A DNA stretch of 62,600 nt from an uncultured Syntrophales bacterium (GTDB lineage: Bacteria; Desulfobacterota; Syntrophia; Syntrophales; JADFWA01). Made by a program: the position numbers and the translations under genes. Location of the stretch: contig CAYVXX010000004.1 of assembly GCA_964454305.1 (NCBI GenBank), forward strand, positions 1 through 62,600, read 5' to 3'. Every line of letters starts with the position of its first letter. Position 1 is the stretch's first letter. This document shows, piece by piece, positions 12,942 through 59,008 of this stretch. The notes under the pieces were generated by a model. That model was not told the DNA's origin and made no database searches. It saw only the letters and a program-made list of their open reading frames with translations.

Positions 12942-13005
12942 AGTATAAGAAAGGTAAGCTGTCAGCTATCAGCTATCAGCATTCAGCAAAGGGAAAGGCT
13001 TTTAG

Positions 13006-15264: not shown

Positions 15265-15306
15265 TTCAAAGTTCGGAGTTTCACGTTTGGGGGAATGGAA
15301 TTACTG

Positions 15307-15436
15307 TGACAGTCTCGTAAAAAGTCTCAAAATGTGTTATTTGTCATGCTGAACTTGTTTCAGCATCTAATTCAGTAAGTTAGAGACCCTGAAATAAATT
15401 CAGGGTGACAAAAGCTGACTTTTTACGAAGCCATCA
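15307..15436. mobile_element. Family-B MITE-like element, copy B1
   Basis: Inverted termini TGACAGTCTCGTAAAAAGTC (15307-15326) and GACTTTTTACGAAGCCATCA (15417-15436). Two internal hairpins. No ORF. Confidence 0.5.
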
Positions 15437-15484
15437 ACTTTAAACTTTGAACTTTGAACTCGAAACTTTAAACAGGTATTCATC

Positions 15485-19490: not shown

Positions 19491-19834
19491 ATAGAGTTGA
19501 GATGCTTGAAAAAGAACAGATTAGATTGGATATTCCTTATTTTAAATCAGGTGATACCGTTAAGGTGTATGCGAAAATTGTCGAAGGCCAGAAAGAGAGA
19601 ATACAGGTTTTTGAAGGAGTTGTAATAAGGAAAAGAGGGGGAAGTAACCGGGCAACTTTTACTGTGAGGAAAATGTCATATGGTGTAGGCGTTGAAAGAA
19701 CTTTTCCCCTTCATTCGCCTATAATAGACAGGGTCGAGGTTGTAAGAAAAGGAAAAGTTAGGCGTTCCAGGCTGTACTATCTGAGAGGACTTAGAGGCAA
19801 GAAGGCAAGGATAAAAGAAGCCGATAGAAGGTAA
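19487..19834 (+). CDS. rplS: 50S ribosomal protein L19
   Basis: 115 aa. [16 protein letters not shown]...[10 protein letters not shown] is the canonical L19 sequence. Confidence 0.97.
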
Positions 19835-19836
19835 GA

Positions 19837-20084
19837 AAGTGAGCTAAAATGTCTAAAGTGAACTAAAGTGCCTAAAGTTGACAGTCTCGTAAAAAGTCTC
19901 CTTAGCTTGTCATTTCGAGTGAAACGAGAAACCCTTTAAACGTAACATACTTAAAAGATAAGATTTCTCCCTATAGTCGAAATGACATATTCGTTGAATT
20001 TCACTTTTTACGAGCGCATCAAAGTTAAGGGGTTTGATAATTTTAACTTTAGCTCACTTTAGGCACTTCAAACTTTAGGCACTT
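19837..20084. repeat. Composite palindrome: family-C word arms flanking family-B element B2 (19879-20021)
   Basis: The left arm (19837-19878) and right arm (20045-20084) are inverted arrays of xxxTAAAGT words. B2 termini: TGACAGTCTCGTAAAAAGTC and CACTTTTTACGAGCGCATCA. Confidence 0.6.
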
Positions 20085-20701: not shown

Positions 20702-21070
20702 ATGGCTAATACTAAGATTCAGACAGGTAAACTGGGTGAAAATATTGCGGCTGATTACCTGGAAAAAGAAGGGTACAGAATTGTTCAAAGGAATTACAGG
20801 TGCGTTTTTGGAGAGATTGATATTGTTGCAATAGATAGAAATGTCATAGTATTTGTAGAAGTCAGAAGCAGGAGATCGGCTAAATACGGTTATCCGCAGG
20901 AGTCAGTTGGGCATAGCAAGAAAATGAAAATTTCAAAAATAGCATTGAATTATTTGAAGGAAAAGCAGTTCCAGGACTGCCGCGCAAGATTTGATGTTGC
21001 GGCGGTTAAAATTTTACCTGAGGGCAGCGAGGTAAAACTTATTAAAAATGCTTTTGATCTGATGTATTAA
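20702..21070 (+). CDS. yraN: YraN-family endonuclease (UPF0102)
   Basis: 122 aa. GEIDIVA...VFVEVR motif. Conserved position after rnhB. Confidence 0.88.
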   Translation: MANTKIQTGKLGENIAADYLEKEGYRIVQRNYRCVFGEIDIVAIDRNVIVFVEVRSRRSAKYGYPQESVGHSKKMKISKIALNYLKEKQFQDCRARFDVAAVKILPEGSEVKLIKNAFDLMY

Positions 21071-21073
21071 ACT

Positions 21074-21263
21074 TGACAAGTTCGTAAAAAGTTTTTTCAG
21101 AGCGAATTTAAGCATTTTGGGAAAAAGATGCTGATAGTGACCGGCGTTAAGAAAATCTAACTGTTTGAGTGCATAAGCACGAGTTTTAGATTTTTAGCCG
21201 GGCAATAACAGCATTCCCAAAATGGTTCTGAGCGAAGAAAAGTGACTTTTTACGAGCGTATGA
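21074..21263. mobile_element. Family-B MITE-like element, copy B3
   Basis: Termini TGACAAGTTCGTAAAAAGT and GACTTTTTACGAGCGTATGA. Internal 10-bp inverted repeat CATTTTGGGA/TCCCAAAATG. No ORF. Confidence 0.5.
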
Positions 21264-21282: not shown

Positions 21283-22125
21283 ATGGAAAAAGGAACATTA
21301 TATATTGTTTCAACTCCTATAGGTAATCTGGAGGATATAACCCTCAGGGCGCTGAGGGTTCTAAGGGAAGTCCAGCTTATTGCGGCGGAAGATACCCGCA
21401 GGACAAAGAAACTGTTAAACGCGTATCAAATTCGTACTCCACTCACCAGCCTTTATGATCATAATGAGTTAGAAAAAAGCAATTTTTTGATTTCCAAGAT
21501 TAGTGACGGGATGAATATGGCTTATGTGTCTGATGCCGGAACTCCCGGCATATCAGATCCGGGATATATCTTAGTGAATAGAGCGATTGAAAACCATATC
21601 AAGGTTGTTCCTGTTCCCGGCATATCTGCCGTGATAGCAGCACTGAGTGTTTCCGGTTTGCCAATGGACAATTTTGTTTTTAATGGATTTTTGCCTTCCA
21701 GAGCAAATAAGAAAAGACAGTTTTTAGAATCACTGAAGGATGAGAGCAGAACGATGGTTTTTTATGAGTCTCCTAACAGGCTGGTTTCTACACTTCGGGA
21801 TATAGAAAAAATTATGGGGAACAGAGAAGTAGTTGTTTCCAGAGAGTTGACAAAGGTTTTTGAAGAAATATTAAGGGGAGATGTCAGGAAAATTATGGAC
21901 TCTCTGCAAGAAAGGGTGGTAAAAGGAGAAATTACTCTTGTGGTTGCGGGAAAAGAAAAAACACCTCGTCAGTTTTCGGATGAAGAGATACGAATCAGGG
22001 TTGAAAAATTGGGAGAAGATCTCGAACTTACGACAAGAGATATAGTAGATGTAATTTCCCGGGAAACAGGCCTTTCAAAGAGGAGGGTTTACAAACAAGT
22101 TTTGAAACTGGTTGAAGATGTATAG
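21283..22125 (+). CDS. rsmI: 16S rRNA (cytidine1402-2'-O)-methyltransferase
   Basis: GTLYIVSTPIGNLEDIT...AAEDTR is the canonical RsmI N-terminus. Confidence 0.95.
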   Translation: MEKGTLYIVSTPIGNLEDITLRALRVLREVQLIAAEDTRRTKKLLNAYQIRTPLTSLYDHNELEKSNFLISKISDGMNMAYVSDAGTPGISDPGYILVNRAIENHIKVVPVPGISAVIAALSVSGLPMDNFVFNGFLPSRANKKRQFLESLKDESRTMVFYESPNRLVSTLRDIEKIMGNREVVVSRELTKVFEEILRGDVRKIMDSLQERVVKGEITLVVAGKEKTPRQFSDEEIRIRVEKLGEDLELTTRDIVDVISRETGLSKRRVYKQVLKLVEDV

Positions 22126-22172
22126 CGAGTGCGTATTTTTCTCAAAATGCTTTGATAGCTTCAATAAGAAGG

Positions 22173-22357
22173 TTGAACTGAACAGCGAGCGCCTTCCCCG
22201 CTGCTTGCGGCGGGGTTATCGAGCGAACACACAAAATATTTTCCTCACCCCGATAAACGGGATAAGTACGTTAACGAATTTGCTTTCTACCAGAAAGCAA
22301 ATTCTAACTCACTAAACAGTTGGAGATTCCCCGCAACTTGTTGCGGGGAGCTTCAAT
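22173..22357 (+). repeat. Family-A composite hairpin element, long form (A1)
   Basis: 5' box TTGAACTGAACAGCGAGCG. Hairpin CCCCGC-TGCTTGCG-GCGGGG. 13-bp stem 22276-22304. 3' module GGAGATT-CCCCGCAACTTGTTGCGGGG-AGCTTCAAT. Confidence 0.7.
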
Positions 22358-22409
22358 TTGTCAAAACCATATTATAAGTCATGAGCTCAATTGGATAAGG
22401 GAGAACATC

Positions 22410-22808
22410 ATGGACAAAGATGAGAGACTGGAAGAAAGGATAGAACCCGCTGTTGAAGGGTCGCCGTTTGTTGATGACCCGTTAGAGGAAGTGGATAAAG
22501 ATTTGTCGTATGAAGAAAATCCTGAGGAAGAAATAATTGATCTATTTGATGGAATTCTTAATGATAAAGAAAATCTCGAAGCCGTTAAGGACAAAGATGG
22601 GTGGATATTAAAAGATGATGAAGAGATCTATGACCTTATTGATGTTGTTGAAGAAGTTCCTGAAGGGGTTTTAGGGGATCGTGAGTTTAATGATGAAATC
22701 GTAAAAAAGGTATCAGAGATTGCTGAAAAAATTGCCAGAGAGATAGTGCCCGAAATTGCCGAAAGGGTTATCAGGGAAGAAATCGAGAAATTGAAGAACG
22801 ATGAATAA
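22410..22808 (+). CDS. Highly acidic protein, function unknown
   Basis: 132-aa Asp/Glu-rich ORF. The start was set at ATG 22410 (AAGGGAGA upstream) because the track N-terminus is a translation of repeat A1. Confidence 0.5.
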   Translation: MDKDERLEERIEPAVEGSPFVDDPLEEVDKDLSYEENPEEEIIDLFDGILNDKENLEAVKDKDGWILKDDEEIYDLIDVVEEVPEGVLGDREFNDEIVKKVSEIAEKIAREIVPEIAERVIREEIEKLKNDE

Positions 22809-23728: not shown

Positions 23729-24334
23729 GTGCAAATGTTCCTTAACAGGATAAAAAGTGCTTTTTGTCTATTAGTAATTATCTGTTTTATTTCCGGTTGC
23801 TGGTTAAGATCTTCCTCTCCAGTTGTTCCTCCTTCAAGTGAGACGAGTCCAAGGCTTGTTGCAGTGCTGCCCGTAGATAATGAGACGTCTGATACACAGG
23901 CAGCCCAAATTCTGCGAAAAAAGATATTTGAAGAACTATATTTTAAAGGTTATCCCAAAATACCGTTAGAAATTGTTGACGAAAAGCTCTCTAAAGTTTA
24001 TAAAAAAAATACGGAATGTGTGGCAGGAAAAATACCGCCTAAAGCAATAGGGGAGTTGCTTGGTGTTGATGCCGTGATGTATTGTACCCTGACTGAGTGG
24101 AAAACCTCTTTTGTTTATTTTTATGCCCCCACGGCGGTTTCCGCTTCTTTTGAATTAAGAAGTGCTAAGACAGGAGAGACACTCTGGAGTTCACATTATA
24201 GGGTAGTGAAGAAGAACTATGGATTTTCTCAGAAAGAACTTGAAATGAAATCATGTCAGATTTATGAAAAGGCTGTTGAGGAAGTGGTAAATAAGGCCAT
24301 GGAAACCCTGCCTGATGGTCCTGATGCTGTATGA
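23729..24334 (+). CDS. Lipoprotein, possibly of the DUF799/GNA1162-like family
   Basis: Lipobox FISGC. The LVAVLPVDNETSD pattern resembles DUF799 lipoproteins. Assigned from memory, unverified. Confidence 0.5.
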   Translation: MQMFLNRIKSAFCLLVIICFISGCWLRSSSPVVPPSSETSPRLVAVLPVDNETSDTQAAQILRKKIFEELYFKGYPKIPLEIVDEKLSKVYKKNTECVAGKIPPKAIGELLGVDAVMYCTLTEWKTSFVYFYAPTAVSASFELRSAKTGETLWSSHYRVVKKNYGFSQKELEMKSCQIYEKAVEEVVNKAMETLPDGPDAV

Positions 24335-25725: not shown

Positions 25726-25963
25726 TTGTGAACAATCGGTAGTTAGCATTCAGACGTTAGCAAGACAGAGAAAAGCAGTTTTCATCCCGGTTTCTTTACT
25801 GAAGGATGACTGCTCAGGTAATATTTGTCTTGACATAAAAACGCTTTATTGTTAATCAGTGGCGGATTTTAATGTAAGACATTTACAGAATTTGCAAATG
25901 TCTTGAAACCCATTAGAATTTGAGAAATATCCACTCAAGGTGGAATCTTTTTCGAAGGTCTGT

Positions 25964-26038
25964 AGGCACGTAGCTCAGGGGGAGAGCATCACCTTGACAC
26001 GGTGGGGGTCCAGGGTTCAAATCCCTGCGTGCCTACCA
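25964..26038 (+). tRNA. tRNA-Val (anticodon GAC)
   Basis: Hand-folded cloverleaf. Acceptor AGGCACG/CGTGCCT, D stem GCTC/GAGC, anticodon stem TCACC/GGTGG with loop TTGACAC, T arm CAGGG-TTCAAAT-CCCTG, encoded CCA. Confidence 0.92.
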
Positions 26039-26118
26039 TTTATAGTTAATAGTTGCAGGAAATGTTTGAGGAACCTTCAGACATCTCAAAATTCATCGGC
26101 GATGAATTTCACCAGCTT

Positions 26119-26190
26119 TTGAACTGAACAGCGAGCGCATTATTCTTCGAATTACTTCGTTCCCCGTAGCTTGCTGCGGGGAGCTTCAAT
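26119..26190 (+). repeat. Family-A element, minimal form (A2)
   Basis: TTGAACTGAACAGCGAGCG, then a 26-nt linker, then CCCCGTAGCTTGCTGCGGGG-AGCTTCAAT. Confidence 0.65.
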
Positions 26191-26570
26191 TAACTAAATA
26201 TTTCGAGGGGTATCTCCTCAAAGTGAGACCTTTTTCAGAAGTCTCGACAGGTGGTGAGTTGAAAGGGGCATCAGCAAGTTTAAAATCAGCGATGCCCTTT
26301 ATTTAAATAAAGGTCTAATCAGGTGCCTGTCTGATGAAGAAGGGTCTTTGTCTGCAATATTTGCGTTTTTTGTGTATGTGCGGGTATCGCCCCAAACAAT
26401 AAGATTTAGTTTGAAATGTGAAATGAATTGAAGTGCCTAAAGTTAAGGATTTTAATCAGTCAACTTTAGCTTACTTTGTACCCTTTTTGAACTTTTTTGG
26501 TTATCCGCCTCAGGCAGATCCGTATCAGGTTTAAAATGTATGTGCATTTTTCTGGAATGGGACATTTTTC

Positions 26571-28487
26571 ATGAAGAAAATCAAAATTAGCTTACCTGAT
26601 GGTTCGGTAGTATCTCACGCTGAAGGGCTGACCGTTAAAGAGATAATTGCGTCATGGAAGGAAGATTTGTTGACTTCTGCAGTAGCGGCAAAAGTTAATG
26701 ATGAAATGGTGGATTTAAGTTATTCTGTGAAGGAAGATTCCTCTATAATAGTTATTGATGTTAACTCGGGAGAGGGTTTAAGCACACTCAGACACAGCAT
26801 ATCCCATGTGATGGCTCAGGCTGTACAGGATATCTTCGAAAGTGTTAAAGTTAGCATAGGGCCTGCTATTGATGATGGTTTTTACTATGATTTTGAGTAC
26901 TCCGAATCCTTTACTCCTGAGGACCTGGTAAAGATTGAAAAAAGAATGAGAGAAATTATATCTGCCGATCATCCCTTTACGCGTGAAGAGGTCTCGAAAG
27001 AAGAGGCTATCTCACTATTTAAGGAGAAAGGGGAAGCATACAAGGTTGAGCTGTTGAATGATATGCCGGAGGATGTGGTGGAAGTGAGTCTTTACAGACA
27101 GGACGGATTTACGGATTTGTGTCGTGGACCACATATACCATCCACAGGTATGATTAAGGCGTTCAAGCTTACAGGTGTTGCAGGTGCTTACTGGCGTGGT
27201 GATGAGAAAAACAAAATGCTACAGCGCATCTATGGCACGGGTTTTGCGACTGAGGAGGAACTTGAGGAGTATCTTTTAATACTTGAAGAGGCAAAACGGA
27301 GAGATCACAGGAAATTGGGAAGAGAGTTAGACCTTTTTCAGATGAATGAAGAAGTTGGGCCGGGTATGATTATATTTCATCCGAAGGGGGCTATGTTAAG
27401 GACAATTATTGAGGATTGGGAAAGAAAGGAACACCTTAAGCGGGGGTATGAAATTGTTGTAGGGCCTCAGATGTTAAAGGAGGAGCTCTGGAAGAAATCA
27501 GGACATTTTGACCATTACCGGGAAAACATGTATTTTACCGAGGTTGAGGGTCAAGTTTATGGCATAAAGCCTATGAACTGCCTTTCTCACATGTTGATAT
27601 ACAAGTCCAAGATAAGGAGTTACAGGGATTTACCGGTCAGATATTTTGAACTTGGTACCGTTCACCGCCATGAAAAAACAGGGGTTCTCCACGGTTTAAT
27701 GAGGGCTCGTCAATTTACGCAGGATGATGCACATATATTATGTACACCCGAGCAGTTGAATTCTGAGATTAAGGGCGTTGTCGATTTTGTCGATTTTGCG
27801 ATGAATGTTTTCAAATTTGAATATGAAGTTGAACTCAGCACAAGACCGGGGGACTCGATAGGTTCCGATGAGGATTGGGATCTGGCTACTTCAGCGTTGG
27901 AACATGCGCTTAAAGACAAAAACATGTCTTATGATATTAACGAAGGAGACGGGGCTTTTTATGGTCCAAAGATAGACTTTAAGCTGAAGGATGCCTTGAA
28001 AAGAAGCTGGCAATGTGCGACAATACAATGCGATTTTACCCTGCCTGACAGGTTTGATCTCAACTATATCGGGTCTGATGGTGAGAAGCATAGACCGGTT
28101 ATGCTGCACAGGGTTATTCTGGGCGCCATAGAAAGGTTTATGGGGGTGTTAATTGAACATTATGTTGGTGCCTTTCCAGTATGGTTGTCACCGGTACAGG
28201 CGGTTTTGCTTACAGTTACTGAGAAACAGATACCCTACGGTGAAAAAGTTTACAGGCAACTTGTCGATGCTGGTATCCGGCTGGAAAGGGGTTTCAGAAA
28301 CGAAAAATTAGGATATAAGATAAGGGAAGCACAAATGCAAAAAATCCCTTATATGTTGGTAATCGGTGACAAAGAGGTCGATTCTGAGAGTGTTTCTCCC
28401 AGACAGAGGGATGGAAAAAATCTTGGATCAATCAGCGTGGCTGATTTTGTTTCCCTGGTTAGAGAAAAGTGTAGTAAGTATGAATAA
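26571..28487 (+). CDS. thrS: Threonine--tRNA ligase
   Basis: 638 aa. TGS domain, editing domain, class II core (RVRGFTQDDAH-like [11 protein letters not shown]). Confidence 0.97.
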
Positions 28488-28488
28488 A

Positions 28489-28573
28489 GAGTGCCTAAAG
28501 TGAGCTAAAGTGCCTAAAGTTATGCTTATAAATAACTTTAGATCACTTTAGACACTTTAAACTTTAGTCACTC
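28489..28573. repeat. Family-C word palindrome (C4) between thrS and infC
   Basis: The left arm (28489-28523) contains AGTGCCTAAAGT twice. The right arm (28532-28573) is the imperfect inverse. It is followed by AATTTTT and the infC RBS. Confidence 0.65.
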
Positions 28574-29383: not shown

Positions 29384-29472
29384 AAGTGCCTAAAGTTTGA
29401 AGTGCCTAAAGTGAGCTAAAGTTATGGATAAGAATTTTCAACTTTAGTCACATTAGTTTACTCCAGTTACTT
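29384..29472. repeat. Family-C word palindrome (C5) between rpmI and rplT
   Basis: The left arm contains AGTGCCTAAAGT twice (29385, 29401). The right arm CAACTTTAGTCACATTAGTTTACTCCAGTTACTT is the imperfect inverse. Confidence 0.6.
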
Positions 29473-34117: not shown

Positions 34118-34120
34118 AGA

Positions 34121-34251
34121 GCATTCAGCTATCAGCCGCCAGCTTTCAGCAAAAAAAACAAAAGATCAATCGGATAGGGGTAGCCCCGTATGGTTACCCC
34201 TACTTTTTTATTTTGCTGATCGCTGAATGCTGAATGCTGAATGCTGAATGC
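34121..34251. repeat. Family-D heptamer-word palindrome enclosing a terminator
   Basis: Left arm GCATTCAGC TATCAGC CGCCAGC TTTCAGC. The right arm includes (GCTGAAT)x4 at 34222-34249. Confidence 0.65.
34176..34214. terminator. Bidirectional rho-independent terminator between the merR-like and PxxKW genes
   Basis: AGGGGTA...TACCCCT stem with an A-run upstream (34150-34158) and TTTTTTATTTT downstream. Confidence 0.6.
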
Positions 34252-42528: not shown

Positions 42529-42927
42529 TCATTTTGTTGAAAACAGTCTTATAAGAACCTTTCTTGTCCTGGGACCATCAAATTCACAGAAGAATATAGA
42601 TTGCCATGTACCGAGTATAAGCTTGCCATCTTCTATGAATACCGTTTCGGAAGCCCCAATCAGGGAGGACTTGATGTGGGCGGCAGAGTTTCCCTCAATA
42701 TGACTGTAGTTGTCATTGGGCGGTATAATCTTATTCAGCTCCATTATGATATCCCTTGGCACGTTAGGATCGGCATTTTCGTTTATTGTAATAGCTGCAG
42801 TAGTATGGGGTGTAAAAATATGACAGATGCCGCTTTTAATCTGCCTTTCACTCACCATCTTCCTGACCTGATGGGTAATATCGATCATTTCAAACTTTGA
42901 CCCGGTCTTCACAGTTATCTTTTTCAT
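42529..42927 (-). CDS. YjbQ-family protein (UPF0047, secondary thiamine-phosphate synthase)
   Basis: 132 aa. HTTAAITINENADP and GNSAAHIKSSL motifs. Confidence 0.88.
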   Translation of the reverse strand: MKKITVKTGSKFEMIDITHQVRKMVSERQIKSGICHIFTPHTTAAITINENADPNVPRDIIMELNKIIPPNDNYSHIEGNSAAHIKSSLIGASETVFIEDGKLILGTWQSIFFCEFDGPRTRKVLIRLFSTK

Positions 42928-42937
42928 GAATTGCCCT

Positions 42938-43021
42938 TTGAACTGAACAGCGAGCGAATAAAATCAACAAATTTCATTAACAGTCGGAGATTCCACGCAG
43001 CTTGCTGCGGGGAGCTTCAAT
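42938..43021 (+). repeat. Family-A element, short form (A3)
   Basis: TTGAACTGAACAGCGAGCG...CAGTCGGAGATT-CCACGCAGCTTGCTGCGGGG-AGCTTCAAT. Confidence 0.65.
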
Positions 43022-43260
43022 CTTTTTGTTAATTAATAATCGGTTTTACTTAAAAAAAACTTAATTATACTTTGATATTTTTCTGAATAGGACAATACTA
43101 TATGTATCTTGTCAAGCCAAAATGCACATAGTTTGTGAAATACAAGATTTTTCCTTAAACTCACTGTTTTATTGGGGGATGAGCTTAAGGGAGAACTTTT
43201 GACAAACACTGGTTTTTATGGTACCAAATTGATGGAATCATATATGAGGAGGTAGAAAAA

Positions 43261-43950: not shown

Positions 43951-44074
43951 ATTGAATCTCCCCGCCGCAAGCAGCAGGGAATGAAGTAATTGAAGTTCCC
44001 CCGCAACAAGTTACGGGGGAGCTCCGACTGTTAAGGAAAATATTTATTTTTTATTCGCTCACTGTTCAGTTCAA
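43951..44074 (-). repeat. Family-A element, inverted copy with two tandem 3' hairpin modules (A5)
   Basis: The reverse complement reads TTGAACTGAACAGTGAGCG...GGAGCT-CCCCCGTAACTTGTTGCGGGGG-AACTTCAAT-TACTTCATT-CCCTGCTGCTTGCGGCGGGG-AGATTCAAT. Confidence 0.65.
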
Positions 44075-45256
44075 TTTCTCCTTAAGCTTCATGATTCTCA
44101 TGTATGATTCATTGATCCGTTCTGGACTGATTTCACCACGGGACAACAATTTTTTTATTATTGCAAGGGCGCGTGTTGAGATATCCTCTTCAAAGACCGA
44201 ATTATTGGCAAAAAGCAGGATGTCGACACCGGAAGAGATTGCCATTTTTATAGCAGTTTCAAGGCCGTAAAATGACCTGATTGCCTTCATCTGCATATCG
44301 TCAGAGATGACAATACCTCTATATTTAAGATCATTACGGAGTATCCCCTTGACAGTTCTGGATGAGAGGGTAGCTGGCCACTCTGGATCGATTTTTCCAT
44401 TAAAAATGTGGGCTGTCATTATCATATCGCATTTCCCGGATTTTATAATAACCTCAAAAGGTTTGAGTTCATTTGGAGACCAGCTGTTCGTTACATCTAC
44501 GAAGCCTTTATGGGAATCGTTCAATGAACTGCCATGTCCAGGGAAATGTTTTATTGCTGAGAGCACTCCAAAATCGTGTAAGGCATCGATGAATATAAGC
44601 GAATGTTTAACCACAATATCCGGATCAGCGGAAAAGCTCCGTTCTAACTTTCCGATTATGGGATTATCTGGATTTATATTGAGATCAACTACTGGTGCGA
44701 AATTAAGGTTAATTCCAAGATTAGCAAGAGTTTTTGCTGTTATTTTTGCGAACCTTTCTGTTGTGCTGGGGTTGTCAATTGATCCGAGATATTGTTCCGA
44801 TACGGAGGGAGGGAATCCGAACTTTTCTTTCAACCTATTAACCTTTCCGCCTTCCTGATCAATCGCAATAAAAAGGGGAATTAAAGAAGCTTTTTGCAGA
44901 GCAGTAGTTAAGGCTTTGACCTGTTTTGGGGACTTTATATTTCTGATAGGTGATTTTAATGGGACGTCGTAATCAAAGAGGATGACACCGCCTATATTTC
45001 TCTTTTTGATGTCCTGAATTACTGGACTTTGATTGTCTGCTGCAAGTCCCCGGAACCCGACCATTAACATCTGGCCTATTTGTATGTCGAGATTTTTATT
45101 TGAAGGTTCTGCAAGTTCCCCGCTCACTGAAGGCGGCGGCATGAAATGTATTAGCAGGATAAGTATCCAGAAAACCAACAAGAATAGACAAAGGTCATGC
45201 TTTACGTTGATCTTTGTTTTTACCCTTTTTTTCGTAGAAATTCCGGTTTTACGCAT
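44066..45256 (-). CDS. Glycoside hydrolase family 3 (NagZ-like beta-N-acetylhexosaminidase), membrane-anchored or exported
   Basis: KHFPGHG motif and GH3 N-terminal domain, plus an N-terminal TM segment. Confidence 0.85.
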   Translation of the reverse strand: MRKTGISTKKRVKTKINVKHDLCLFLLVFWILILLIHFMPPPSVSGELAEPSNKNLDIQIGQMLMVGFRGLAADNQSPVIQDIKKRNIGGVILFDYDVPLKSPIRNIKSPKQVKALTTALQKASLIPLFIAIDQEGGKVNRLKEKFGFPPSVSEQYLGSIDNPSTTERFAKITAKTLANLGINLNFAPVVDLNINPDNPIIGKLERSFSADPDIVVKHSLIFIDALHDFGVLSAIKHFPGHGSSLNDSHKGFVDVTNSWSPNELKPFEVIIKSGKCDMIMTAHIFNGKIDPEWPATLSSRTVKGILRNDLKYRGIVISDDMQMKAIRSFYGLETAIKMAISSGVDILLFANNSVFEEDISTRALAIIKKLLSRGEISPERINESYMRIMKLKEKLN

Positions 45257-46409: not shown

Positions 46410-46439
46410 AGACATTGAGGATAAAAAATCTGTGCCGGG

Positions 46440-46472
46440 GGGTTCCGCCCTTTGGGCGGGGAACTTCAAAAT
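46440..46472 (+). repeat. Solo family-A-like hairpin plus tail (A7)
   Basis: TCCGCCC-TTT-GGGCGGGGA followed by ACTTCAAAAT. Confidence 0.45.
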
Positions 46473-47210: not shown

Positions 47211-47401
47211 TTTGAACTGAACAGCAAGCGAATAAAAAACAAACAATTTCCTTACCCCGATAAACGGGATAAGTCCCGCTAAAGGGGATAAATCCCACTA
47301 AAGGGGATAAATGCGTTAACGAAATTATTTTCTGGCAGAAAATAATTTCTAACTTACTAAACAGTCGGAGATTCCCCGCAACTTGTTGCGGGAAGCTTCA
47401 A
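47211..47401 (+). repeat. Family-A composite hairpin element, long form (A4)
   Basis: TTGAACTGAACAGCAAGCG. Three tandem units of about 19 nt (CCCnnTAAAnGGGATAAnT). 13-bp stem 47320-47348. GGAGATT-CCCCGCAACTTGTTGCGGGA-AGCTTCAAT. Confidence 0.7.
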
Positions 47402-47480
47402 TTTGTACAATTTTCTGTTGATAATATTTAAAATCTGCTTTAATATAATAAAGTTTATAAAAGCCGAAGAAGACAGGAAG

Positions 47481-49784
47481 ATGGAAGACAGAATGGAACA
47501 TCGAGAGGTAAAACATCAAGAGATAGAAGAACTACACGAAAAGCTCTCCCTTCATAAAGCGCTGCAGGATATTACCAATCGCATCAATGCCGCTGAGAAT
47601 ATAAGGCAGATACTGGTGGACCTTAAAGACGGCATTTTAAACCTCTTTAATGCCTATTCAATTACTATATATGTGGTGGACCAGGCAAGAAATGAAATCT
47701 ACTCCATGTTTCTTGCAGGATCTGCGTTAAAAGAAATCAGGTTACCTATCAACAATGAAAGCATTGCTGGCTACGTGGCCAATACAAGAAGGGCCGTCAA
47801 TATTGCCGATGCTTACGACACAGAAGAATTAAAAAAGATTGATGAACAACTGACATTTGATGACAGCTGGGATAAAAAAACGGATTACAGAACAGCGCAA
47901 ATACTGGCTGTCCCGATCCTTTATAAATGTGTCCCGATGGGTGTTATTCAGATAATCAATAAAAAAGGAGGTGGTAAATTTTCCATTGAGGAACAGGGCT
48001 TTCTGGAGAAGATAGCTGATGTTCTGGGGATTGCCTTTTACAATCAACAAAGGGTAGCCAAGAAGAGGAAAACGAAATTTGATTACCTTGTGGCCCAGGG
48101 TCTTATAAAGGATGCGGATCTGGAAAGTGCCTGGGATGAAGCCAGAAAAAATAAAGAAGCCGTGGAAAGTCTGCTGACAACAAAATACAAGGTTTCAAAA
48201 GAGGATATAGGTAAATCCCTCGAAGAGTTTTATCATTGTAAGTTCGTGCAATTCAACGATAAATACTCGATACCTGGAGATTTGCTGAGAAACCTGAGGA
48301 GAGAATATCTCCGCCGCGAGTTGTGGGTTCCCCTTGAAAAGAAAGACGGAAAAATCAGGGTGATTGTTGACGATCCTAACAATATCTTAAAGAGGGATAT
48401 GATCGAAAATCTCCTGAAAACAAGATCGGTTGAATACAATGTGGCCATAAAGGAAGATATATCGAAATTCATCAACCACTTCTTCCAGACACATGGGGAT
48501 GTTACATCTATGAGCGATATCCTCGGGATGCTTGACGATGGAGATGAATCTCTGGAGGATGAAGAAGGAGATGTAGTTACAGAATCAGATAGTGTAATCA
48601 TGCAGCTGGTCAATAGGATTATAAACGACGCATACACGCAAAATGCATCCGATATTCATATTGAAGCCAATGCAGAAAAAAAGAACGTTGAAGTAAGATT
48701 AAGGATTGATGGTGATTGTGCGGTTTATCAAACTCTTCCATACAATTACAGAGCAGCAGCTGTTTCAAGGATCAAGATAATGTCCAATCTTGATATAACA
48801 GAACGTAGACTTCCCCAGGATGGCAAGATAAAATTCAGACGAGGAAAGGGTGATGAAATAGAACTGCGCGTGGCAACAATACCCACACAAGGTGGCCATG
48901 AGGATGTTGTAATGCGAATTCTTGCCAAAGGTGACACGATGCCGCTCGAAAAAATGAATATGTCGCCATATAATTATAAAGGTTTTCTGGAAACAATTCA
49001 AAAACCCTACGGGATGGTTCTTTGTGTCGGTCCTACCGGGTCAGGTAAGACAACAACCCTTCATGCTGCACTACATCATATCAACACACCGGAAAAAAAG
49101 ATCTGGACAGCAGAAGATCCCGTTGAAATCACACAGTACGGTCTTCGCCAGGTACAGGTCAACCCCAAAATCGGCTTTGACTTCAGTCACGCCATGCGCA
49201 GCTTTCTAAGGGCTGATCCGGATGTTATTATGGTAGGGGAAATGAGGGATTCCGAAACCGCCAAAATTGGTATTGAGGCCTCACTCACAGGACATCTTGT
49301 TTTTTCCACCCTTCATACAAATAGTGCCCCGGAGACGATTGTCCGGCTTCTTGATATGGGGATAGACCCTCTGAATTTTGCTGATTCTCTACTTTGCATA
49401 CTTGCACAAAGACTGGTTAGAACGCTCTGTAAATGCAAGGAAGGGTATCATCCATCAAAAGAGGAGTATGATGAAGTAGCAAACAGTTATGGGGAAGAGC
49501 TATTCTCAAAACTCAATATTCCCTACAATGATGACTTTAAATTATCCCGACCGAAGGGTTGCAGTGAATGTAATAATAGCGGATACAAGGGCAGGATTGG
49601 CCTTCATGAAGTGCTGATTGCAACAGACAGTATCAAGAGATTGGTTCAGAAACACGCAATGGTTGAAGAAATACGTAACACAGCCATCTCCGAAGGCATG
49701 ACTACCCTTCTTCAGGATGGAATACTTAAAGCCATTGGTGGTTTTACAGATTTTAAACAGGTATACAGAGTGTGTATGAGGTGA
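47481..49784 (+). CDS. GAF domain-containing GspE/PilB-family secretion ATPase
   Basis: N-terminal GAF-like region, T2SSE N-domain, Walker A GPTGSGKTTT, Asp box, Walker B, and tetracysteine CKC...CSEC. The start was set at ATG 47481, outside repeat A4. Confidence 0.88.
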   Translation: MEDRMEHREVKHQEIEELHEKLSLHKALQDITNRINAAENIRQILVDLKDGILNLFNAYSITIYVVDQARNEIYSMFLAGSALKEIRLPINNESIAGYVANTRRAVNIADAYDTEELKKIDEQLTFDDSWDKKTDYRTAQILAVPILYKCVPMGVIQIINKKGGGKFSIEEQGFLEKIADVLGIAFYNQQRVAKKRKTKFDYLVAQGLIKDADLESAWDEARKNKEAVESLLTTKYKVSKEDIGKSLEEFYHCKFVQFNDKYSIPGDLLRNLRREYLRRELWVPLEKKDGKIRVIVDDPNNILKRDMIENLLKTRSVEYNVAIKEDISKFINHFFQTHGDVTSMSDILGMLDDGDESLEDEEGDVVTESDSVIMQLVNRIINDAYTQNASDIHIEANAEKKNVEVRLRIDGDCAVYQTLPYNYRAAAVSRIKIMSNLDITERRLPQDGKIKFRRGKGDEIELRVATIPTQGGHEDVVMRILAKGDTMPLEKMNMSPYNYKGFLETIQKPYGMVLCVGPTGSGKTTTLHAALHHINTPEKKIWTAEDPVEITQYGLRQVQVNPKIGFDFSHAMRSFLRADPDVIMVGEMRDSETAKIGIEASLTGHLVFSTLHTNSAPETIVRLLDMGIDPLNFADSLLCILAQRLVRTLCKCKEGYHPSKEEYDEVANSYGEELFSKLNIPYNDDFKLSRPKGCSECNNSGYKGRIGLHEVLIATDSIKRLVQKHAMVEEIRNTAISEGMTTLLQDGILKAIGGFTDFKQVYRVCMR

Positions 49785-49883
49785 TTACTTAATGGATTTC
49801 AGGAAAGACTTGACACTCCGGACACCTTCTACACTTTTAATATGGTCGATAATTTTATGGATTTGCCCACTTTTTACGAAGCA

Positions 49884-52484
49884 TTAGTCCTTACCTTTTA
49901 TCTTGGTTTGCCATTCATTTATCATATGCAATGCTTCCATTGGGGTTAGATTGGCAATATCAAGCCCCTTGAGTTCATTTATGACATGATCCTCGTCATC
50001 CATGAAGAGGCTTAACTGCCCTTTTTTTTCTTTGTCTTTCCCAGGGGCTATTTTAGGCATTCCTACCTCATCCAGCTCTCCCTTTTCCAGATTCTCAAGG
50101 ACTTCCCTTGCCCTCAAGATAACCTCTTCAGGAACCCCCGCAAGACGGGCAACCTGGATACCATAACTCCTGCTTGTACCCCCCGCCACAATCTTCCTCA
50201 AGAATATTATCCTTTCACCCCACTCTTTCACGGCAACATGAAAATTCTTCACCCCTTCTCCGGTTAGGGCTATATCCGTCAGCTGGTGATAGTGGGTGGC
50301 AAAGAGGGTGCGGGCACCAATGTGACCGGAATCGTGGATGTGTTCCGCCACGGCCCATGCTATGCTGAGACCGTCAAAGGTACTTGTTCCCCGTCCTACT
50401 TCATCGAGAAGAATTAAACTTTTCTTTGTGGCATTCTTCAGGATATGAGCCACTTCGTTCATCTCCACCATAAAGGTACTCTGTCCCCTGGCCAGACTAT
50501 CCGTTGCTCCAACACGGGTGAATATTCTGTCGGCAACGCCGATCCTTGCCTCGGATGCCGGTACAAAGCTGCCCATCTGTGCCATCAGTGTTATAAGTGC
50601 TACCTGTCTGATATAGGTCGATTTTCCAGCCATATTAGGACCGGTGATAATGAAAAAGCGGTTCTTATCGCAATCAAGGCAGGTGTCATTCGGCACAAAT
50701 CCCTCAGACGAAGACATCCTTTCTACCACCGGATGCCTGCCATCATGTATTTCGATGGAGTCTTGATCATCCACATGGGGACAGCAGTAATTGTATTTTT
50801 CAGCCACCTCGGCGAGAGATACAATGGCATCAAGATCAGCAAGCAATGAGGCGGTCTTCTGAATCCTCTTGATCTCTTGAGCCGCCCGATCCCTTATCTT
50901 CACAAAGAGATCATATTCTCTCTCCTTCTTCTTATCCTCGGCATTGAGAACTGTGTATTCATACCCTTTGAGTTCCTGATTTATATATCTTTCGGCATTC
51001 ACCAGGGTCTGTTTTCTGATGTAATCATCGGGAACGAGACCGGCATTGGCCTTTGTGATCTCTATATAATATCCAAATACACTATTGTATCCCACCTTGA
51101 GAGAATTGATCCCCGTACGTTTACGCTCCTTTTCCTCAAGGGCGGCTATCCATCTTTTCCCGTCCCTCGTAAGCGAAATCAGCTCATCAAGTTCGCTGTC
51201 GTAACCCTCTTTTATAATGCCGCCATCACGAATAGTGGGAGGGGGATCAGAAACGATAGAGTTTTCTATAAGAGAAGCTATGTCTTGCATCTCATCAAGA
51301 CCCTCGCAAATCGAAGAGACCAGAGGAGAATCCGTATCAGAAATTAATTTTCTGATGCCGGGCAGTACCTTAAGGGAGGTCATAAGCGCAACTAGATCCC
51401 GGCCATTGGCAACCTTCATAGATATCCTGCTTCCCAGCCTCTCCAGATCGTAAACATCTGAAAAAGCTTTCCGCAGATCGTCCCGCAACAGATGACGGTC
51501 CTTTATCTCAGATACAGCGACCAGCCGTTCTTTAATTTTCTCGGGATCAACGAGGGGATAGGAAAACCACCAGCGGAGCCTCCTGCCGCCCATAGCGGTA
51601 ACCGTCTCATCAAGGACATTGAAGAGAGAGCCGGTTTTTCTGTTATCGGAAATTGTGGTGAACAGTTCCAGGTTTTTTCTGACAATATCATCCAGCACCA
51701 GATAGCTGGCGGTGTCATACCAGGTAATGTCATTGATATGGACGAGATGGTCTCTTTGTGTTTCCGTTACATACCGAAGAACCGCACCGGCCGCTTCTGC
51801 CATTGCCGGGTGTCCTTCGACATTAACTTTCGTTAAAACGTCCTCGGAAAAATACTCTCTGAGAACGACAACTGCCGTATTATGAGCAAAATAATCGGAA
51901 GGAAGATAATTTACCACGCACCCCGAAAATGCCTTGAGAAGACGGGTTTCTTTTAAATTCTCTTCCGCAACGATCTCCCTGAAATCAAGGCCGGTGATTT
52001 CATTGAGAAAGAACTCCCTGTCACTTGATTCAGTTACACGGAATTCACCGGTAGATATATCAATAAAGGCGAGTCCAAGGATGCCGTCTCTTATTGAAAA
52101 CCCGGCCAGAAAATTATTTTCCTTGGCCTGGAGGTTTTCAGAATCAACGACCAGCCCAGGTGTTACAACACGGACAACCTCTCTTTTGACTATTCCCTTT
52201 GCTTTTTTCGGGTCTTCAACCTGTTCGCAGATCGCTACTTTAAACCCTTTCTCAATAAGCTTTGCTATGTAAGATGAGGCTGCGTGATAGGGGATACCGC
52301 ACAGGGGGATACTGTCCTTCTTCCCCTTGTTTCTCGAAGTCAGGGTAATCTCCAGGACTCTCGACGCGGTAACGGCATCATCAAAAAACATCTCATAAAA
52401 GTCGCCCATCCTGAAAAAGAGGATGCAATCATTATGCTTTTCCTTGATTTCCACATACTGTTTCATGGCCGGGGTAAGATTCAT
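49884..52484 (-). CDS. mutS: DNA mismatch repair protein MutS
   Basis: TPAMKQY...FYEMFF mismatch-binding motif and Walker [10 protein letters not shown]. The ATG at 52484 overlaps the upstream stop. A GTG at 52493 is also possible. Confidence 0.97.
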
Positions 52485-58926: not shown

Positions 58927-59008
58927 TTGAACCCATGTGATGGGGAAACAAATTATTTGACCGGGAACGCACCCGCAGGCCCCGCCCTGTGGGCGGGGAG
59001 ATTCACAT
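58927..59008 (+). repeat. Divergent family-A element (A6)
   Basis: TTGAAC...CCCCGCCC-TGT-GGGCGGGG-AGATTCACAT. Confidence 0.45.

Follow-up and report, generated by a model that had tools for sequence, protein, structure and literature searches.

Palindrome-associated transposable elements (PATEs) are minimal derivatives of the IS200/IS605 insertion sequences that are mobilised in trans (PMC10055086). In the IS200/IS605 member IS608, a flanking tetranucleotide directly precedes the left cut, which is 19 nt away from the foot of the hairpin; the right-end TCAA lies inside the element, 10 nt from the foot; and the donor joint forms without gain or loss of a base (PMC3201880). Here we analysed a 62,600-nt stretch of DNA from an uncultured Syntrophales bacterium (assembly GCA_964454305.1, contig CAYVXX010000004.1, positions 1 to 62,600; hereafter the window), in which an earlier note had drawn attention to a structured repeat, copy A4, upstream of a gene for a GAF-PilB-type ATPase. 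We consider that A4 is probably one insertion of a gene-less, modular, high-copy mobile element of the PATE type, which would have moved as single-stranded DNA by the IS200/IS605 route through a Y1 (HUH) transposase supplied in trans. The proximity of A4 to the ATPase gene is incidental.

A4 belongs to a dispersed family with conserved ends, whose members are present or absent between close strains with base-exact junctions. The window holds five copies, A1 to A5, four on the + strand and one on the minus strand (Table 1), and four of the five have their top strand on the locally G-rich strand. The 5' (left) module, TTGAACTGAACAGCGAGCG, occurs 5 times in the window at ≤1 mismatch compared to 0 expected, and the 3' (right) module occurs 6 times compared to 0.45 expected. 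The earlier note had overlooked the minus-strand copy A5 (44074->43951) and two pieces of a sister family, which we call family B. The element contains no open reading frame (ORF), and its flanking genes are housekeeping genes. Outside the window, the left module gave >107 exact matches in GTDB genomes (one genome per species), with many per genome, and the hosts were nearly all metagenome-assembled genomes (MAGs) of Syntrophales, Deltaproteobacteria or Desulfobacterales. The Syntrophales chromosome OY761459.1 (2.59 Mb), for example, carries the family. In the DNA runs, element depth was roughly 50-100x flank depth. A scan of viral contigs returned one isolated left-module fragment, which was uninformative, and a literature search with the module sequences returned no match. 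The family studied here (family A) is very abundant in anaerobic syntrophic Deltaproteobacteria (Syntrophales) and related bacteria and, like its sister family B, is apparently undescribed.

The ends of the element are conserved (left CTGAACAGCGAGCG.., right ..hairpin-AGCTTCAA) and the interior is variable. Between the fixed ends stand optional cassettes, namely the left hairpin H1, a linker, an X module, one to three P units of 19 nt, a Q stem and further modules, so that element length ranges from 52 nt to about 300 nt. The shortest, single-hairpin form (left module, hairpin, right end) has many copies, and many active-looking copies are without Q and P. All four kinds of intergenic context contain family members, in either orientation with respect to the neighbouring genes. 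A candidate second element in the loop of the right hairpin H2 (..CTTG|TCGGAGCAAAAGCGGAGATCC..) was rejected and is another 38-nt internal module. At locus L003 (4758-4824), we observed a palindromic rearranged form whose right end is a perfect inverted left module with an inverted hairpin (TTGAACTGAACAGCGAGCG..CTCGCTGTTCAGTTCAA).

Mobility is indicated by empty sites in a related strain, represented by contigs in public lake-water metagenomes that differ by roughly 5-10% in the flanks; the strain of the window is present in these metagenomes too. At the A4 site, DNA contigs X19 and X20 pass directly from 47214 to 47400, so that 185 nt are skipped (2 letters being ambiguous), and the empty site reads ..ATTTTGAA|TTTGTAC... 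A1 is also missing in the related strain (joint 22178->22358), where the empty joint fits exact loss only with one flank substitution or a 1-nt shift, as is A2 (..ACTATTGAA|TTAACTAAAT.., which is ..TTGAA|TTAAC..). A3 is probably absent, in that the related strain joins 42938 to 43075 with 60 unlike letters between them, which match a diverged element-free spacer. The A5 site contains a 104-nt version. Moreover, at the place that corresponds to window position 24331/24344, which is empty in the window and lies between two + strand genes, the related strain has an additional copy preceded by ..GTATGAA. Three or four of the five insertions therefore differ between strains about 5-10% apart, and the insertions could serve as a strain-level marker.

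Each of the insertions A4, A1 and A2 directly follows (T)TGAA; the empty site retains this motif, and no target bases are duplicated. Copies that had not been selected through the motif were preceded by TTGAA, CTGAA, ATGAA, GTGAA or CCGAA, and two nested copies were found inside other copies after ..CCGAA (L024 and L086). Neither a junction of right end to left end (AGCTTCAA|CTGAACAG) nor a head-to-tail tandem copy was found in the fetched loci.

The geometry of the ends points to a mechanism. Full-length copies, such as A1, carry two hairpins, H1 and H2, which both read CCCCGCnn-CTTG-nnGCGGGG and stand in direct orientation on the top strand. H1 (CCCCGCTG-CTTG-CGGCGGGG) is imperfect, with a constant T.G wobble at position 6 or 7, and the H1-S hairpins showed 55 wobbles compared to 3 A.C mismatches. 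A4, A3 and A5 are without the left hairpin, and A4 has H2 only. In family A, the TGAA target is 18 nt 5' of the foot of the left hairpin and TCAA ends 8 nt 3' of the foot of the right hairpin, where the cut positions are those of the element boundaries and not of cleavage assays. The 18-nt and 8-nt geometry of family B is identical. The combination of a flanking target without duplication, a related end motif (TCAA), hairpins in the same orientation and this spacing is the signature of IS200/IS605 single-strand transposition.

Guide-like complementarity was seen beside the hairpins. The cut motif has G as its second base on the left (TGAA) and C on the right (TCAA), and in both families the base 4 nt 5' of the hairpin is C on the left and G on the right. 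In family A, the guide-side sequences are GCATT (left) and AGATT (right); in family B, the motifs are TGAC and TCAC and the sequences 5' of the hairpins are GCAAG and GGAAG. In family A, the motif ends in A and T is the base adjacent to both hairpins; in family B, the motif ends in C and the adjacent base is G. These correspondences are what recognition of the cut motifs by base-pairing with the bases 5' of the hairpins would predict. In A4, the last bases of AACAGTCGGAGATT at the right end form the putative guide and the TCAA ending at 47401 is the putative cleavage motif.

We propose that a transposase would bind the two hairpins on the top strand. Its left cut would follow TGAA, 18 nt ahead of the foot of the left hairpin, and its right cut would follow TCAA, 8 nt beyond the foot of the right hairpin; each site would be recognised through base-pairing with the nucleotides that immediately precede the corresponding hairpin. 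Inside the element, the Q and P hairpins would be passengers, whose pairing may be kept either because only self-folding interiors proliferate or because quasi-palindrome template switching restores it. Each copy would then decay after insertion. Formation of 3' untranslated regions (UTRs), supply of stop codons and occupancy of promoter regions would be side effects on neighbouring genes.

Several observations weigh against this interpretation. For family B, the guide pairing scheme works only if one base is skipped; the scheme is drawn from only two families, and single-hairpin copies are not easily fitted to it. The single-hairpin 52-nt copies, which are multi-copy within one MAG, are not simply explained by a two-hairpin model, and A4, which is without the left hairpin, may no longer be mobile. 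No Y1 transposase was found by tblastn (with an IS200 TnpA and E. coli RayT) in 1.45 Mb of fetched loci, a partial sample biased to short elements. Left and right modules stood 0.3-4 kb apart in four cases, of which the two with a sense ORF of transposase size enclose host genes; from reading by eye, we take these to be an FAD (flavin adenine dinucleotide)-linked oxidase-like gene and a molybdopterin oxidoreductase-like gene. The missing transposase is a gap rather than a refutation. A preference of the top strand for the lagging-strand template, which the mechanism would predict, was not demonstrated: the top strand lay on the locally G-rich strand in 61 of 98 copies (p = 0.02), or in 91 of 131 with looser criteria, a bias that is inseparable from gene orientation; the coding-strand bias was equal (69%), and convergent plus divergent contexts were split 21 versus 16. 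Finally, the known IS200/IS605 mechanism needs no internal hairpins, and covariation in the Q stem would be explained only indirectly.

This covariation was the subject of the earlier note, which had compared the long copies A1 and A4. Direct reading gave a perfect 13-bp stem in A1, GAATTTGCTTTCT-ACC-AGAAAGCAAATTC at 22276-22304, with sequence and coordinates exactly as claimed. The A4 stem, GAAATTATTTTCT-GGC-AGAAAATAATTTC, has the claimed sequence and stands at 47321-47349, so that the coordinates given for it (47320-47348) were one base low. The arms differ at positions 4, 7 and 8, and all three differences are compensated, as had been reported. In A4, an outer GTTA/TAAC helix (47315-47318 with 47350-47353) continues the stem on the far side of an AC bulge. 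Likewise, the co-variation of the terminal hairpin, with AA/TT in A1 and A4 (CCCCGCAA-CTTG-TTGCGGGG) and AG/CT in A2 and A3 (..AG-CTTG-CT..), is seen in all four copies; H2 of A4 is CCCCGCAA-CTTG-TTGCGGGA at 47374-47393, with one C.A mismatch at its foot. The tandem array of A4 was recovered by Tandem Repeats Finder (period 19, 3.0 copies, 89% matches, 47256-47312), which agrees with the claim of three units where A1 has a single one. The same three-unit array occurs in locus L103, which implies a heritable subfamily variant and not a local expansion. The predicted fold of A4 is strong on both strands (z = -5.1 as RNA and -4.9 as DNA; z = -5.3 for the opposite strand), and folding energy thus gives no strand discrimination.

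On a larger alignment, compensation in the Q stem was frequent. A metagenome scan anchored on the Q flanks gave 120 further loci, which together with the earlier loci and the window made 127 distinct Q modules; 114 distinct stem constructs were scored for covariation in a gap-free alignment, with loops replaced by a constant GAAA. Two length classes occur among the modules: one pairs 13 bp around a 3-nt loop, the other 15 bp around a loop of about 9 nt. Among the 121 of 127 modules that pair without indels, arm position 4 is A-T in 61, G-C in 42, T-A in 11 and C-G in 1, and positions 7, 8, 11, 12 and 13 have two to four pair types each, so that up to four Watson-Crick pair types occur at one position. 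Fifteen different perfect 13-bp arm haplotypes were found, and 32 of the 121 stems are perfect. In the 114 constructs, 91.9% of cells were paired compared to 85.0% in shuffled alignments, and 148 cells were changed on both sides compared to 41 in shuffles, with 0 of 500 shuffles as high in either measure. Changes on both sides affected 10 of the 17 base pairs, and the covariation score was 0.236 compared to 0.110 in shuffles and 0.04-0.10 in slid controls. The many haplotypes and pair types imply many independent origins and not one shared palindrome-conversion event, and the proposal that structure rather than sequence persists was thus borne out. At window position 47327, RNA runs X8 and X9 contain an A4-type stem with G for A at arm position 7 and an unchanged 3' arm, which is a G.U (G.T) intermediate between two compensated haplotypes.

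Covariation alone identifies neither the molecule nor the level at which structure is maintained. Mismatches in the Q stem, read on the + strand, were G.U (G.T) in 38 cases and A.C in 55, with no excess of wobbles. We read this lack of wobble preference and the equal folding of both strands as structure kept in propagating lineages, followed by neutral decay of each copy, and not as per-locus RNA selection. In REPINs, which are paired palindromic repeats, the hairpin is also kept despite turnover of the spacer sequence (PMC3337134). The Q stem could be maintained through quasi-palindrome correction or, alternatively, because the folded single strand is under selection; we consider correction second.

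Quasi-palindrome correction is compatible with transposition of the element. It is an established mutational mechanism, in which a change in one arm is transferred to the opposite arm in one step, by template switching or by hairpin-templated repair. That compensation in the Q stem is mutational in this way is possible, and of the alternatives that we weighed it survives best. It would account for the equally good folding of both strands, for the symmetric mismatch spectrum, as expected without strand-specific selection, and for the many perfect haplotypes that differ at scattered positions. However, about 8% of cells are unpaired and only 32 of the 121 stems are perfect, which means that correction would be slow, and where the loop has expanded from 3 nt to about 9 nt, the stem is preserved or has even become longer. 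Correction and selection are not distinguishable from sequence data alone.

Repetitive extragenic palindromic (REP) sequences and bacterial interspersed mosaic elements (BIMEs) offer another model, in which REP-type hairpins are spread by a domesticated REP-associated tyrosine transposase (RAYT) and kept for stabilising or ending mRNA. The family resembles such host repeats in its high-copy, intergenic, GC-rich hairpins and mosaic organisation, and RAYTs are also Y1 enzymes (PMC3337134). Moreover, RNA contigs that enter A1 and A2 halt near the 3' hairpin. A1 is co-transcribed with the upstream methylase gene in mismatch-free contigs that reach 22322-22351 (region 21800-22620), and contigs from the tRNA run into A2 and stop near its 3' hairpin (region 25941-26400); beyond A1, RNA depth is 0-3.5, down from about 7-10, and beyond A2 it is zero. 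This fall may reflect a GC-rich hairpin acting as a barrier or stabiliser, or a break of the de Bruijn graph at the conserved right end. The contig ends are possibly such graph breaks, since at other copies RNA contigs extend 165-255 nt beyond the right end. H2 was also considered as an intrinsic terminator and was rejected: the scan did not call it on the + strand, and the tail AGCTTCAATTTG is only moderately T-rich. A REP/BIME origin is unlikely, given that the hairpins are direct and not inverted, that there is no GTAG head, that the left and right ends of the element are distinct, its target is fixed and its empty sites are exact to the base, and that E. coli RayT gave no homologue in the fetched DNA.

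Two further explanations make the structured interior functional. The Q and P cassettes might be parts of a transcribed guide-RNA-like scaffold or of a protein-binding platform, with the family as the trans-acting RNA partner of a TnpB/IscB-type nuclease or other factor in Syntrophales; if so, the covariation would reflect RNA- or protein-level selection and not transposition fitness. We regard this as doubtful. Slightly more doubtful still is the specific form in which the element is a PATE with an omega RNA scaffold, whose interior and right end are transcribed and bound in trans by TnpB or IscB, so that the Q covariation is RNA-level selection. PATEs often encode omega RNAs that are acted on in trans (PMC10055086), the structured part of the element adjoins the right end on the top strand, and element sequences do occur in metatranscriptomes. 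Yet Rfam 15 gave no match: at the gathering score the window yields only tRNA, the best match to A4 reached 18.9 bits compared to thresholds of 43-114 bits, and nothing relevant appeared at E <= 10. No RNA contig of A4, A1 or A2 passes the right end into the 16-20 nt guide stretch, and Q shows no G.U excess. The element RNA consisted of short repeat unitigs only, at about 4x ATPase depth, contig depth being a poor measure; set against the roughly 50-100x flank depth in DNA, this ratio would imply low RNA per copy, which is a weak argument against an omega RNA. Active-looking copies without Q and P also speak against it.

The earlier note had raised the question whether A4 belongs to the leader of the ATPase mRNA, where it would act in cis as a structured element, or forms a small RNA of its own. 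A4 is on the same strand as the ATPase gene, and its end (47401/47402) is 79-80 nt upstream of the ATG at 47481, in agreement with the 80 bp that had been noted; the strong predicted fold and the covariation would also suit a leader. The downstream protein contains GAF, MshEN and T2SSE domains, and an exact-protein look-up found no record of it. In contrast to what a leader would predict, the locus of the related strain is without A4. Moreover, in four metatranscriptomes the first bases of the ATPase RNA contigs fall within 47474-47494, the stretch 47405-47471 has no depth at all, and the unique sequence to the left of A4 shows essentially no transcription. A promoter-like site lies downstream of A4, outside the element (Table 1), and the ATPase transcription start is predicted a few nucleotides 3' of 47446. 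Elsewhere, the element adjoins unrelated genes in every orientation. A role of A4 as ATPase leader or separate RNA is thus very improbable, and a mis-annotation is avoided, in that the strongly covarying hairpin in front of this gene is a module of a mobile element and not a riboregulator.

Least credible of all is a classical miniature inverted-repeat transposable element moved by a DDE transposase: the ends TTGAA..TTCAA resemble a 5-bp inverted repeat and the L003 copy terminates on the right in a complete left module in inverted orientation, but empty sites keep TTGAA without target duplication, left TTGAA and right TTCAA differ consistently and are thus no duplication, and normal copies have no inverted repeats beyond 5 bp.

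Table 1. Positions of the element copies, their parts and associated features in the window.
Feature	Coordinates	Strand	Description
Copy A1	22173..22356	+	TTGAA target 22173-22177, then 179-nt element
Internal parts of A1			H1 22197-22216; one P unit; Q stem 22276-22304; H2 22330-22349
Copy A2	26119..26189	+	Short form: left module, X module, one hairpin, right end; directly downstream of tRNA gene
Copy A3	42938..43020	+	Short form without H1; 10 nt from start codon of divergent UPF0047/YjbQ gene
Copy A5	43952..44074	-	Two right-end hairpin modules; left module gives stop codon of the glycoside hydrolase family 3 (GH3) gene
Sister family B, right-end remnant	46420..46469	+	..GTTCCGCCCTTTGGGCGGGGAACTTCAA; nhmmer E = 0.0014
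TTGAA target / transposon-adjacent motif of A4	47212..47216	+	Kept in the empty site of the related strain
Copy A4	47217..47401	+	185 nt, from CTGAACAGC to GAAGCTTCAA; long form without left hairpin H1
P modules of A4	47256..47312	+	Three tandem 19-nt units, each a mini-hairpin (CCCNnTAAAnGGG) plus ATAART
Q module of A4	47315..47353	+	AT-rich 13-bp stem, 47321-47333 with 47337-47349, loop GGC
Right end of A4	47360..47401	+	AACAGTCGGAGATT, then H2, AGCT, TCAA
Promoter-like site	47418..47446	+	TTGATA-17-TAATAT, between A4 and ATPase gene; outside element
Sister family B, short form	58957..59006	+	TTGAC|CGGGAACGCACCCGCAGG, one hairpin, then AGATTCAC

Two of the remaining copies touch coding genes. 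The ribosome-binding region of the UPF0047/YjbQ gene (..TTCAAAGGGCAATTCATG, minus strand) abuts the end of A3 (42927-42943), and look-up of the YjbQ protein gave matches in same-strain contigs with A3 only. The TGA stop of the GH3 gene (44066..45256, minus strand) comes from the left module of A5 (44066-44074), which implies that the insertion reshaped the C-terminus of the gene.

Sister family B has the layout TTGAC|CGGGAGCGCACCCGCAAG-hairpin-..TTCCTTACCGGGAAG-hairpin-AGCTTCAC and shares the architecture and geometry of family A. It differs in its hairpins (CCCCGCC..GGCGGGG) and in the last base of both end motifs. Around its short form in the window, homology of other family B copies starts at 58956-58958 and ends at 59006/59007. 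Family B also occurs in nine fetched loci (L003, L006, L009, L040, L041, L074, L076, L088 and L103). No clean joint was obtained for a family B copy in the related strain, where the region is rearranged.

The window also contains other repeats. A dispersed intergenic repeat of TAAAGTGCCTAAAGTGAGC-like 19-nt units (families D1 and D4), which is unrelated to the element, is found at 70-125, 19826-19881, 26421-26456, 28487-28533 and 29398-29434. The motifs TTGACAGTCTCGTAAAAAGT and ACTTTTTACGA.. (families D9 and D10) recur at 15301-15325, 19873-19897 and 21068-21092, and at 15418-15443, 20003-20028 and 49869-49894; each is in part the reverse complement of the other, and they may represent an operator-like site or one more palindromic repeat. 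Intergenic stretches at 12957-12990 and 34120-34153 have a motif with a period of 7 nt, AGCTGTCAGCTATCAGCTATCAGCATTCAGC (family D8).

The element is of interest for its extreme modularity, clean covariation and high turnover between close strains, and the family provides a natural data set on how single-strand transposons tolerate and shape internal structure. It also gives a lead to the cognate Y1 transposase and to any RNA-guided nuclease, for which the predicted target motif would be TTGAA.

Among known systems, the element is most likely a PATE-type derivative of IS200/IS605. Like the PATEs of, for example, Haloquadratum and Geobacillus stearothermophilus, it has no coding capacity, a subterminal hairpin at each end in the same orientation, a flanking left motif and a related motif that closes the element, no target duplication and many copies, and it would likewise be mobilised in trans. 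Unlike PATEs, it is highly modular in its interior, where 19-nt mini-hairpins stand in tandem and a stem of 13-17 bp covaries, and it has 52-nt forms with one hairpin only; its hosts are MAGs of Syntrophales and other Deltaproteobacteria (phylum Thermodesulfobacteriota), and no sequence similarity to any described family was found. It shares with IS608 of Helicobacter pylori a target 18-19 nt 5' of the left foot, an internal TCAA 8-10 nt 3' of the right foot and an exact donor joint (PMC3201880), and it may also share bases 5' of the feet that are complementary to the cut motif. It differs from IS608 in the target, which is TGAA and not TTAC, in its GC-rich hairpins with a CTTG loop and in carrying no tnpA or tnpB gene. 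As in REPINs and REP/BIME repeats, short, high-copy, intergenic hairpins with a known or, here, putative link to Y1 enzymes stand in mosaic arrangements, sometimes within 3' UTRs, and the spacer varies as the hairpin is kept (PMC3337134). A REPIN, however, consists of two REPs in inverted orientation, with neither distinct left and right ends nor a fixed target, whereas the element described here is without GTAG and no RAYT was found with it. In their overall design, the BOX elements of Streptococcus pneumoniae (boxA-boxB(n)-boxC) are similar, with fixed ends, a variable tandem interior and a strong fold when transcribed. BOX elements belong to another host phylum and have another sequence, and in the element described here the target, the ends and the empty sites point to single-strand transposition.

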